Shown here: positions 51,154 to 55,858 of the stretch, one piece after another
How the letters are laid out: each line of letters begins with the position of its first letter
How positions within the stretch are numbered: position 1 is the first letter of the stretch
Assembly: GCA_965248195.1 (NCBI GenBank)
Contig: CBDFIQ010000002.1
Coordinates: 1,856,001 to 1,920,000 of the forward strand
Direction: 5' to 3'
Length of the DNA: 64,000 nucleotides
DNA from: Longimicrobiales bacterium
GTDB lineage: Bacteria > Gemmatimonadota > Gemmatimonadetes > Longimicrobiales > Gaopeijiaceae
Notes under the pieces: generated by a model
The model's database searches: none
Seen by the model: only the letters and a program-made list of their open reading frames with translations
Told to the model about the DNA's origin: nothing
Position numbers and translations under genes: made by a program

Positions 51154-51474
51154 ATGAAAAGGAAAGGACAGTACTCCCCAGAGGTACGGGAGCGAGCCGT
51201 TCGGATGGTTTTCGAGCACGAGCCTGAGTACAGCTCACAGTGGGCGGCGATCTGCTCGATCTCGGAGAAGATCGGGTGCACGGCGGAGACGCTACGTAAA
51301 TGGGTTCGACGAGCGGAGCGAGACACGGGGCAACGGCCCGGTCTCAAGACAGAAGAGCGTGAGCGACTGAAGGTGCTGGAGCGTGAGAATCGTGAGCTGA
51401 AGCGGGCGAACGAGATTCTGCGTAAGGCATCGGCGTATTTCGCACAGGCGGAGCTCGACCGCCGAGTTCGGTGA
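51154..51474 (+). CDS. IS3 transposase OrfA
   Basis: [49 protein letters not shown]. Confidence 0.93.
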
Positions 51475-52406
51475 TGGTGGCCTTCATCGACGATTACCGG
51501 CCCACGTACGGAGTCGAGCCGATCTGCGAGGTACTGCCGATCGCTCCGTCGACCTACTACACGCACAAGGCGATGCAGGCAGATCCGACGCTACGATCGG
51601 TCCGGGCTCAGCGCGACGAGATGCTGAAGCCGGAGATCCGTCGAGTGTGGATGCAGAACTTCCAGGTCTACGGGGCGAAGAAGGTGTGGAAGCAGCTGAA
51701 CCGGGAAGGCATCACCGTGGCTCGATGCACGGTGGCTCGGCTCATGAAGGAACTGGAGCTTTGTGGGGTTACGCGAGGGCGGCGCTTCAAGGTGACAACG
51801 CACACGGCGGAGGGCGACGAGCGCCCGCTGGACCTCGTGAACCGAGACTTCAGCGCGGCACGTCCCAACGAGCTGTGGGTCTCGGACCTCACGTACGTGC
51901 GGACGGGCCATGCGTTTGTCTTCGTGGCGTTCGTGATCGATGCGTTCAGCCGTCGCATCGTCGGATGGCGGGTCTCGAACTCATTACGCAGTGACTTAGC
52001 GCTCGACGCTCTCGAGCAGGCGATCTGTGAACGCGAGGACGACGCAGACAAGCGCCTGGTGCATCACAGCGACCGCAGGGGGCAGTACCTGTCTATCCGC
52101 TACACCGAGCGCCTGGCGTTGGCAGGCATCGAGCCGTCCGTAGGCAGCCGGGGGGATTCGTATGACAACGCCCTGGCCGAGACGATCATCGGACTCTACA
52201 AGACCGAGCTCATTCGTCCACGCGGTCCGTGGCGCACCCTCGAAGACATCGAGCTCGCCACCCTCGAATGGGTCTGGTGGTTCAATCACCATCGCCTCTT
52301 CGAGCCCCACGGCCATATCCCGCCGGCCGAGTACGAAGAGTTGTATTATTCGCGTCAGGACGCTCCAGGTGAGCCTCTGACACTCAAGTCAAACAGTCTC
52401 CGATGA
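51471..52406 (+). CDS. IS3 transposase OrfB (DDE integrase core)
   Basis: [26 protein letters not shown]; overlaps the orfA stop (GTGATG). Confidence 0.93.
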
Positions 52407-53463: not shown

Positions 53464-53639
53464 GGTTGCGTCTTAAGGTGCTCGTGGGCATGGTGATGCG
53501 CAGCATCTATAAGGTGAAGGGAGTCAACAGGGCGTAGCCCTCCCTTACCCGTCCGGGGTCCCGGAGGGGTGGCTCGGTCCACTGGTCTGTAGCTCAAGGC
53601 CTGCGTCCGTTTTTCATCCTTCAGTACCAACGTCGCGTC

Positions 53640-53795
53640 CGATCTTGGGTGAGTCTCCTCTCACGAGGAACTCAGGCATCTATTCAGGTTTCATCCCAGC
53701 GCGGGGATGTCCGAAGATCTGCTATGCGAGCGAGGGGGGCTCAATCAGAATCTGAGGGTCGTCGTGCGACATGCTGCGCGCGGAGCTCACCCCTG
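53640..53795 (-). ncRNA. Candidate bridge/seekRNA of the IS110 remnant
   Basis: Two stem-closed internal loops found by eye; one carries GCGCAGCAT (reverse complement of the flank ATGCTGCGC), the other ATAGATGC (identical to the element end junction). Confidence 0.6.
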
Positions 53796-53825
53796 TCGTG
53801 GTACGGTCCATCATCGTGTGTCATC

Positions 53826-54027
53826 TCAGTTTGATCGAGCCACGGGTTCATCGTGCCAGACCTCACCCGTACGGAGCATCGCGTGCACAGCACGAGCGAG
53901 GCGCCGAGCGGTAGCGACCCGAGCGACCTGCCACCCGAGCCGTTGCCTGATCAGTTCGTACGACTGTGATAGCCAGCTGTCGGGCGCGTGAGTGACGTGG
54001 CTCACGACGGTCCGGACGAAGGTGCCC
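53826..54027 (-). pseudogene. IS110 family transposase, C-terminal fragment
   Basis: Manual translation FVRTVVSHVTHAPDSWLSQSYELIRQRLGWQVARVATARRLARAVHAMLRTGEVWHDEPVARSN-stop resembles the IS110 A.VA.AR(K/R)L...I.AML..G tail; not in the ORF track. Confidence 0.78.
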
Positions 54028-55403
54028 GGTCAAGTCCCGATTTGTGTGTAAAAGCGGAGGAAGCTCCTCGCCTTCGGCTAGGCTGCTTGGGCGACCTCCT
54101 GTTTCTGGAGGAGTGAGAGGTCGAGGTAACGCCGGTCGCCCCAGACGTGTGTGGTCCTGAGTGCGACGGCCGTGATGAGCCTGAGGGCGCTGGCCCGGTC
54201 CGGGAAGGCGCCGGCGGCCTTGATCCTGCGTTTGATCTCGCCGTGCAGCCGCTCGAGGCTGTTGGTGGTACGCAGCCGGGGCCAGTGCGCCTCGGGGAAC
54301 GCGTAGAACTGCGTCGCTGCCCCGAAGCCCCGCTCCAGGACCTCCACGGCCTCGGGCAGCTCCTTCTTCCAGCGTGCGCCGAACTCGCCCAGGAGCTTCT
54401 TCGCCTCGGCGAGTCCGGATGTCTGGAAGATCACCGAGACCTCACGCGCCACGCGCTTGCGTAGGCGGTGGGGGACCCTCGCCCCCACATTACGCTGCAG
54501 ATGGACCGTACACCTCTGACGGCGTGCCTCGGGCAGGAAGCGGCGGACCGCAGCTGCCAGGCCTGCGTGCTCATCGGCGATCACGAGCTCGACACCGCCG
54601 AGGCCGCGGTCCTGGAGTTGCTCGAGGAGCTCCGACCAGCTCTGCTGCGACTCCTCAGCGCCCAGCGTGACGGCCAGGAGCCGTCGGTGACCCTCAGGGC
54701 CCACTGCATACGCCACGAGCGCACTCACGTTCTCGACTTTGCGGGCCCAGCGGGCGTCCAAGAACGTGGCGTCCAGGTACAGATAGGGGTGAGGCCCCTC
54801 GATCGGCGCACGGCGCAGCCCTTCCACGGCCTCGTCGAGCCGTTTTGCCACACGACTCACCGTCGAGCGCCCAACACGCTCGCCCATCAGCGCCTCGGTG
54901 ACGTCGCCCATCTTGCGCTGTGACACGCCGCTCACATACGCCTCGACCATCATCTCGTCGAGCTCGGGGCTCCTGCGCTGGTAGCGGCCGATCACGTCGG
55001 CCGGCGAACCGTTGTCCCGGCTCCGGGGCATGGCGACCTCGATCTGCCCCAGGCTCGTCAGCAGCCGCCTCAGGTATGTGCCGTTCCTATGGTCCTTCCG
55101 GCTTCCCACCCGCTCGAAGCGGCGTGCACCTACCATGGCCTTCAGCTCCTCTTCCAGCACCATCTCGAGCGTCAGCCGGATCGCGCCTTGAAACAGCTCG
55201 CGCAAATCATCGCGTAGCTCGTCTTGCGTGGCCCGACCGATCTCCACAATCTCTTGCATCGGAAGCTCCTCTCCGGTTCCGAGCCTGCTCTGCAGACCCG
55301 GACTCCCGGGTTCATGTGACAGTGAACAACAACAGAGGAGCTTCCGTTTTTCTTTCCCTCCTGTCCAGCTTATCCGCTTTTACACAAATCTAGGGACACT
55401 ACC
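54028..55403 (-). mobile_element. IS256 family element, 1376 bp
   Basis: Imperfect 31-bp IRs GGTCAAGTCCCGATTTGTGTGTAAAAGCGGA and GGTAGTGTCCCTAGATTTGTGTAAAAGCGGA (reverse complement of 55373-55403); no flanking direct repeat. Confidence 0.93.
54078..55259 (-). CDS. IS256 family transposase
   Basis: RNGTY.R.L.T..G.I...PR.R, YLYLDA, VIADEH.GL, QRC.VH, RTTN.LER...EIKRR. Confidence 0.95.
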   Translation of the reverse strand: MQEIVEIGRATQDELRDDLRELFQGAIRLTLEMVLEEELKAMVGARRFERVGSRKDHRNGTYLRRLLTSLGQIEVAMPRSRDNGSPADVIGRYQRRSPELDEMMVEAYVSGVSQRKMGDVTEALMGERVGRSTVSRVAKRLDEAVEGLRRAPIEGPHPYLYLDATFLDARWARKVENVSALVAYAVGPEGHRRLLAVTLGAEESQQSWSELLEQLQDRGLGGVELVIADEHAGLAAAVRRFLPEARRQRCTVHLQRNVGARVPHRLRKRVAREVSVIFQTSGLAEAKKLLGEFGARWKKELPEAVEVLERGFGAATQFYAFPEAHWPRLRTTNSLERLHGEIKRRIKAAGAFPDRASALRLITAVALRTTHVWGDRRYLDLSLLQKQEVAQAA

Positions 55404-55706
55404 ATCACACCGTGGGTGTTCCATTACCGAGGCAAACGCCTGAATGACTTCCGTCGGACGTGGAACGCCGCCTGTGAGAACGCCGGAGTGCCGGGCACCG
55501 TTTTCCACGATCTTCGCCGCACTGCGGTTCGGAACCTTGAGCGCGCCGGAGTCTCACGGTCCGTTGCCATGAAGATCACTGGACACAAGACCGAGGCCGT
55601 TTATCGCCGCTACGCCATCGCAGATCAGCGTAGCCTGGAGGAGGGCCTAGAGAAGCTCGCAACCTTCAGAGCGGCACAATCACGGCACAATGAGGCCAAA
55701 GCGTAG
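55404..55706 (+). pseudogene. Tyrosine integrase C-terminal remnant, truncated by IS256
   Basis: FHDLRRTAVRNL, ITGHKT..VYRRY catalytic motifs; only ~100 codons; next to the tRNA 3' end. Confidence 0.85.
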
Positions 55707-55775
55707 TCAGTGGCGGCTGAAACGGAGGCAAGACGAATCCGCCTAATTCCCTGCCCTGCCGAACCTTACATAAAG

Positions 55776-55858
55776 TGCCGGGGGTGGGAATCGAACCCAC
55801 ATGGGATTTCTCCCGAGGGATTTTAAGTCCCTTGCGTCTACCATTCCGCCACCCCGGC
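55776..55858 (-). tRNA. tRNA-Leu (anticodon TAA); CCA not encoded
   Basis: GCCGGGGTGGCGGAATGGTAGACGC-AAGGGACTTAAAATCCCT-variable arm-GTGGGTTCGATTCCCACCCCCGGCA. Confidence 0.96.

Follow-up and report, generated by a model that had tools for sequence, protein, structure and literature searches.

The analysed window is a stretch of 64,000 nucleotides, in which positions 53506-54027 hold the right-hand 522 bp of a 1459-bp IS1111-type element; all features of this element given below lie on the minus strand. At 53826-54027 is the 3' tail of an IS110-family transposase gene (residues 280-345). The 66-aa tail peptide matches the IS110-family model NF033542 (E 5.6e-7, model positions 291-342) and is 100% identical to residues 280-345 of a complete 345-aa transposase in the same genome, which upholds the view of an earlier note on this DNA that the peptide is IS110-like; the ten strings quoted in that note are all present where it placed them. 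Pfam by itself gave no recognition of the tail peptide, and a PDB sequence search returned 0 matches. The complete transposase scores 194 bits against NF033542 (cut-off 140), carries PF01548 and PF02371, and contains the DEDD residues D7, E54, D92 and D95 as well as the S260-G261 motif.

The genome contains 12 left ends and 11 right ends of this element, with 7 intact 1459-bp copies elsewhere in attC-like repeats plus fragments, and 3 further full-length copies are interrupted by other elements, with junctions identical to those of the intact ones. In intact copies a left end of 95 bp stands against a right end of about 327 bp, a long non-coding region 3' of the gene. The window copy is interrupted by an IS256-like element, the first 930 bp of the IS1111 element having been replaced, and its private changes relative to intact copies are a 2-nt linker insertion (53732-53733) and a 9-nt deletion (at 53606/53607). 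Because the left end and the catalytic domain are both absent, this copy is an immobile remnant that cannot move itself, while the core of its RNA is intact yet redundant.

The IS256-like element (54028-55403, minus strand) is 1376 bp long, encodes a 393-aa Mutator transposase and shows no target duplication here; in the genome as a whole, 57 of 103 complete copies are flanked by 8-9-bp duplications. The simplest cause of the missing duplication would be a deletion at this copy, and a search of the genome for the reciprocal IS256 junction holding the lost 5' part did not find it. The element has 109 left ends in this genome, nearly all more than 99% identical, indicating a recent burst that struck several IS1111 copies and an integron integrase. 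A tyrosine-integrase C-terminal fragment follows at 55416-55858, adjoining a tRNA gene (anticodon TAA, Leu, assigned by eye); the surroundings are probably what remains of an island that held the IS1111 copy and lost its inner part by a deletion at the IS256 copy. A complete-looking IS3-family element with two ORFs (HTH_Tnp_1 and rve) lies at 51154-52406.

Ends, core and target site

When filled sites are compared with empty ones, the element shows extensions of 7 bp on the left (TGATCTT) and 3 bp on the right (AGA), subterminal repeats of 13 bp, and no target duplication at insertions. In the window, AGA occupies 53506-53508, setting the right end of the element at 53506, and the right subterminal inverted repeat (53509-53521) matches the left one of intact copies at 11 of 13 positions; the repeats are also present in relatives. 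The core TG (53504-53505) and the right half of the target together span 53487-53505. Empty sites, including those in public sequencing runs (loose ends at 2496), read GATTC-TG-CTGCGC and rule out both ATG and GAT as the core, so that the A of the ATG at or within which the earlier note placed the core is the element's last base. All 12 left ends in the genome read TGATCTT-ATAAGG. None of the 12 begins with ATGTCC, as had been predicted from GGACAT (53712-53707), a string that sits in a variable helix and is no guide.

These ends follow the rule for IS1111 elements given by Siddiquee et al. (2024, PMC11187229), which specifies subterminal inverted repeats with 7-bp left and 3-bp right extensions. 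As described there, ISEc11 and ISPa11 share with the present element the subterminal repeats, the 7+3 extensions, the lack of duplication, the long downstream non-coding region, a top-strand match placed before a bottom-strand match, natural re-aiming, and a transposase (here 345 aa) with the motif GL-P----SG. Unlike these shared features, the protein sequence is distant, being 25% identical to an ISEc11-family protein over 226 residues. Its best plasmid matches are haloarchaeal and rhizobial IS110-family proteins at 31-34% identity, and it is 32% identical to the one haloarchaeal relative compared.

Nine copies are inserted in hairpin repeats of ~100 bp with the form TAAC...GTTA, each 13 nt after TAAC. 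Among the 20 empty relatives of the repeat that we found, the 14-nt match is perfect in 2 and has one mismatch in 6. On each side, 7 of the 10 sites adjoin a mechanically called ORF on the opposite strand. A fragment of a broken integron integrase, close to one repeat array, scores 238.7 bits, below the cut-off of 265. The repeats are thus integron attC-like, a site type that the earlier note had missed, and the element inserts at one position within them, opposite to the cassette genes. Of the 9 positions of the top-strand guide described below, 8 agree with the window copy's own flank, which is similar to two partial attC-like sites elsewhere; an attC profile does not score this flank. In L045, a relative of 90% identity, both guides have changed and the insertion point lies 3 bp further along the same attC-like repeat as that used by the intact copies; L046, L048, L018 and L020 share this aim, which is found on at least two branches. 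The right flank of another relative, L029, reads like the guide-RNA region of a related element, which suggests an insertion into another copy's RNA gene.

Relatives of 85-99% identity also occur in sediment RNA libraries, in the form of contigs that give neither strand nor ends nor level. The attC-like repeat itself (L001, positions 2504-2600) has by far the highest summed contig depth in two sediment RNA libraries, which points to a repeat family abundant in those communities.

Structure and guides of the downstream RNA

Relatives were drawn from 40 genome loci and the best 80 of 99 metagenome loci, mostly Gemmatimonadota where named and 47-97% identical, and one own copy was added to them. 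Both ends were present in 59 of these loci; removal of redundancy left 45, and anchoring succeeded for 43. L029, L035 and L112 were left out for their aberrant right ends and L016 and L100 for failed anchors, the tree was built without 5 frameshifted rows, and the leader tests excluded L006 and L037.

In the comparative structure 94.5% of cells are paired and 16 of 30 pairs show changes on both sides, as high a count being reached in 0 of 500 shuffles; the stems therefore covary, a check that the earlier note had proposed. Folding of single sequences is not above chance (z -1.68; also -0.83 and -1.35). The target-binding domain, equivalent to a seekRNA, spans 53735-53793 and consists of an outer stem, an internal loop and an inner hairpin. 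This hairpin (53758-53770) has a 5-nt loop and pairs GTCG with the second CGAC, with 12 compensatory changes, whereas the version with a 2-nt loop proposed earlier is equalled by 323 of 500 shuffles. The donor domain comprises an inner helix (53685-53714, helices 5-6 of the covariation analysis), which contains GGACAT, and a second helix with a conserved GATCGG (53639-53674). In its supposed closing stem, GATCTT/AAGATC, both-side changes occur in 0 of 4 pairs, and the 5' strand of that stem is the best candidate for a right-donor guide. Two GC-rich hairpins are predicted by folding at 53530-53568, ahead of a -35-like box. A model derived from the alignment scores the window copy at 146 bits against 150 for intact copies, a similarity to be expected from the way it was built, and recovers all 13 near relatives that had been held out, two only in part. 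Rfam has no family over the RNA.

Two target guides lie in the first domain. The top-strand guide CGCGCAGCA (53772-53780) pairs with the core TG and the right flank, and the bottom-strand guide GATTCTG (53746-53752) equals the left flank plus core. Over six positions the top guide matches the right flank 229 times (106.5 expected; maximum 138 in 5000 permutations), with 41, 40, 35, 37, 36, 40 and 30 of 43 relatives agreeing at +1 to +7 (permuted 33, 17, 16, 14, 12, 15 and 13) and chance level at +8 (8 vs 8.5). The bottom guide matches the left flank 191 times (97.2 expected; maximum 124 in 5000 permutations), with 29, 38, 41, 41 and 42 of 43 agreeing at -5 to -1 (permuted 13, 14, 14, 20 and 37) and chance values at -6 to -9. 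These permutations ignore kinship among the relatives; with one row per distinct guide (29 rows) the counts are 152 vs 65 for the top guide and 125 vs 62 for the bottom guide. When every RNA column is compared blindly with flank and end positions by mutual information, guide-flank pairs take the first nine ranks.

Covariation with the flank therefore bears out GCGCAGCA, which the earlier note had picked as the top-strand target guide, and across the 43 relatives the guide does not stay constant while flanks vary. The ninth pair of that match is not guide covariation, since the top guide is always followed by a U, however the end reads. The bottom-strand guide had been overlooked, only two of the four guides having been found. 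The central proposal, that the downstream non-coding end encodes a seek/bridge RNA programmed for its site, is upheld by both guide covariation and stems. That the matches are due to chance or mere shared ancestry, as their length of 5-9 nt, their post hoc discovery and the unremarkable single-sequence folding might suggest, is a notion to which we give practically no credence, and it is refuted for the target guides by the agreement of 29 different guide/flank combinations, by sharp edges with neighbouring flank positions at chance, and by two guides of opposite sign (identity vs complement).

The second domain carries the donor guides. The left-donor guide ATAGATG (53677-53683) equals the right end plus core, and at the variable position it follows the right end in 42 of 43 relatives, in three states, in keeping with the match to the element end that had been noticed before. 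The candidate right-donor guide, CAGATCT (53715-53721), pairs at 5 of 7 positions with the left end TGATCTT. In the 43 bacterial relatives it is too constant for covariation (174 vs 174.0 expected), and T-to-C changes in the left end are not mirrored in it; a further candidate, the 3' AAGATC(G), was rejected for lack of covariation.

We also examined the 11 top plasmid matches (haloarchaea plus one alphaproteobacterium), of which 9 haloarchaeal loci were usable; L128, a near copy of L127 whose right end is lost, was left out, and the rhizobial matches L123 and L136, along with L131, gave no clear ends or model match. The 9 haloarchaeal relatives have the same repeats, 7+3 ends and guide grammar, yet the RNA lies in the left end. 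This grammar is seen upstream of the gene in L122, L124-L130, L132 and L133, two of which use an AG core with matching guides. Left ends differ among these haloarchaeal loci, and the first 7 nt of the donor domain change along with them (39 vs 26.1 expected, 0 of 5000 permutations), which places the right-donor guide of the present element at 53715-53721.

A putative handshake-like AT (53744-53745) follows the bottom-strand target guide and equals the left end's first two bases after the core. In the haloarchaeal relatives the handshake-like positions track their partner DNA (17 of 18 vs 12, p 0.0016; 7 of 9 vs 3.4, p 0.004). Among near relatives the target-side position mismatches in 9 of 43, the donor-side signal is not significant (38 vs 36.2, p 0.08), and the tree has only a few changes of donor or handshake state. 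In IS621, according to PMC11208158 and PMC13626964, each loop has its handshake bases behind the second guide, and these bases pair with the strand that is exchanged first. Since the handshake-like bases come here after bottom-strand guides, the RNA is most likely the IS621 bridge architecture read in opposite DNA polarity. In that case the bottom strand would be exchanged first, the left junction keeping the donor's core and the right junction the target's. Among 57 junctions the left core is TG in all 57 and the right core is TG in 54, AG in 2 and CG in 1, a weak asymmetry that comes from two sister lineages.

A different account would have only domain 1 (about 60-80 nt) act as a guide, as a seekRNA for the target, with the protein reading the ends through the inverted repeats and domain 2 serving as scaffold or precursor. 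An 82-nt RNA sufficed for ISEc11, according to PMC11187229; the right-donor guide lacks covariation in the 43 bacterial relatives, and a GATC/GATC helix can mask this guide; and two relatives (L028 and L076) appear, by eye, to keep this helix with donor pairing broken. We nevertheless consider this account improbable, given that the left-donor guide tracks the right end in three states, that both donor guides track the ends in haloarchaeal relatives, and that an ISEc11-family copy (L134) also has both donor matches, by eye, in a longer RNA region.

The family of the element as judged by sequence features, its ends, core and target, the guide-flank covariation, the RNA stems and the loss of the left end are established here. 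Taken together, we are confident in reading the window copy as a left-truncated IS1111-type RNA-guided element whose two-domain RNA, probably with four guides, is aimed at its site. The ends of an intact copy would join into a circle, where a junction promoter would presumably drive transcription of the transposase gene and of the right end. An RNA of ~160 nt with two domains (window 53635-53795) would be processed and bound by the DEDD/serine transposase. Domain 1 would pair with both strands of GATTC-TG-CTGCGCG, through the top-strand guide first and the bottom-strand guide second, and domain 2 would pair likewise with the joined ends. Recombination at the TG core, presumably with the bottom strand exchanged first, would then insert the element without duplication at one position of an attC-like repeat, opposite to the cassette genes.

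Leader complement and candidate promoters

A segment of the right end (53592-53604) is the complement of part of the transposase leader hairpin in intact copies, namely its apical loop and 3' arm. It lies ~86 nt from the right end, just after the private 9-nt deletion, and complements the leader 22-40 nt upstream of the start codon. Own leader/right-end pairs score 26.9 vs 15.7 for cross pairs (0 of 10000 permutations), and the complement exceeds the 95th percentile of shuffles in 41 of 43 relatives. A perfect 9-mer complement occurs in 29 of 41, in 28 different sequences, centred on the loop of the leader hairpin. This hairpin has a mean z of -3.9 and buries the ribosome site in 41 of 41 predictions. 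In locus L001 (1037-1190) a long leader hairpin over the ribosome site is accompanied by a conserved antisense -10/-35-like pair in codons 10-20.

Codon 10 has A at its third base in 35 of 37 relatives (background 8.6%), which makes this the most constrained of 216 fourfold sites; in the antisense direction the base is the last T of a TAcgTT with a TTG 18 nt upstream. This constraint suggests a candidate promoter within codons 10-20 that may drive an antisense RNA, as in ISPpu9. Mismatches in the leader hairpin favour the antisense strand (113 A-C vs 41 G-U), an excess that is partly compositional. Sense-versus-antisense folding energy was discarded as evidence, being composition-driven and favouring antisense for the guide core too. 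The sequence TTGACT (53522-53527), at fixed spacing in relatives, may be the -35-like half of a circle-junction promoter; TTGAC is conserved among relatives and the predicted junction -10 (GATCTT) is weak. A scan for consensus promoters and terminators found none.

The complement could instead work as DNA, in the form of a second inverted repeat that the transposase binds or that serves in single-stranded intermediates, with no RNA-RNA pairing involved. The duplex has no excess of G-U over A-C (23 vs 29), terminal repeats likewise vary between elements yet stay inverted, and co-folding frees the ribosome site inconsistently. On the other hand, the centre of the match falls on the apical loop of the predicted leader hairpin, and bulges interrupt the match, a pattern like that of antisense kissing pairs. 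We regard a DNA-level role as a serious contender that still falls short of even odds. Somewhat more doubtful is the wider proposal of a deep IS1111-type branch, spanning Gemmatimonadota and haloarchaea and sharing one RNA grammar at either the right or the left end, in which the reversed seekRNA is a bridge RNA of flipped polarity with bottom-strand handshakes and whose bacterial members add guide-tail/leader-loop pairing and antisense RNA feedback.

Comparison with known systems and implications

Two older studies, by Tetu and Holmes (2008) and by Partridge and Hall (2003), may describe internal repeats. Both the RNA class and attC targeting are already published. As in IS621 (Durrant 2024, PMC11208160; Hiraizumi 2024, PMC11208158; and PMC13626964), there are two domains, a 2-nt core, four guides of which the right-donor one is a candidate here, and handshake bases, here putative, 3' of each domain's second guide. 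In contrast to IS621, the RNA is in the right end, the guide order is reversed relative to the gene, the handshake-like bases match the bottom strand and the donor domain has several helices. By eye, the right end of the ISEc11-family copy L134 matches each of this copy's two ends at places further downstream than the target loop, top then bottom; unlike the element studied here, an ISEc11-family copy shows no leader/right-end complement evident by eye. ISPpu9, an IS110-group element according to PMC8450116 and PMC12288879, likewise has a structured transposase leader over the ribosome site and an antisense RNA across the leader, which is only predicted here. Its Ssr9 pairs with Asr9, whereas in the present element a downstream segment just 3' of the guide RNA complements the mRNA leader itself.

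ISKpn4, ISPst6 and ISPa25 are likewise directed by RNA guides to one fixed position of integron attC-type repeats. The IS1111-attC targets in Table 1 of PMC13604230 place insertion 6 nt before GTTAG in the element's orientation. In contrast to ISKpn4 and ISPa25, insertion here is 13 nt after TAAC, at the repeat's other end, with unrelated guides. Since most relatives are directed to sequences of other kinds, attC targeting seems to have been gained independently of ISKpn4, ISPst6 and ISPa25, as judged by target position and guides. In the literature searched, where subscription papers were thinly covered, nothing was found for IS1111 elements on bottom-strand handshakes or leader/right-end pairing. 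Relative to that literature, the bottom-strand handshake-like bases, the distinct attC position, the leader/right-end complement and the candidate antisense promoter appear to be new.

These observations provide a clean natural series of re-aimed guides on the IS1111 side of the bridge recombinases, which has been studied less, with 29 different targets in 43 relatives, and the assignment of four guides and handshake-like positions makes the question of seekRNA versus bridge RNA directly testable. They also suggest that RNA-guided elements reached integron cassette sites more than once. The leader/right-end complement points to possible self-control of the element by RNA pairing, and, if true, such feedback would couple guide supply to transposase translation.
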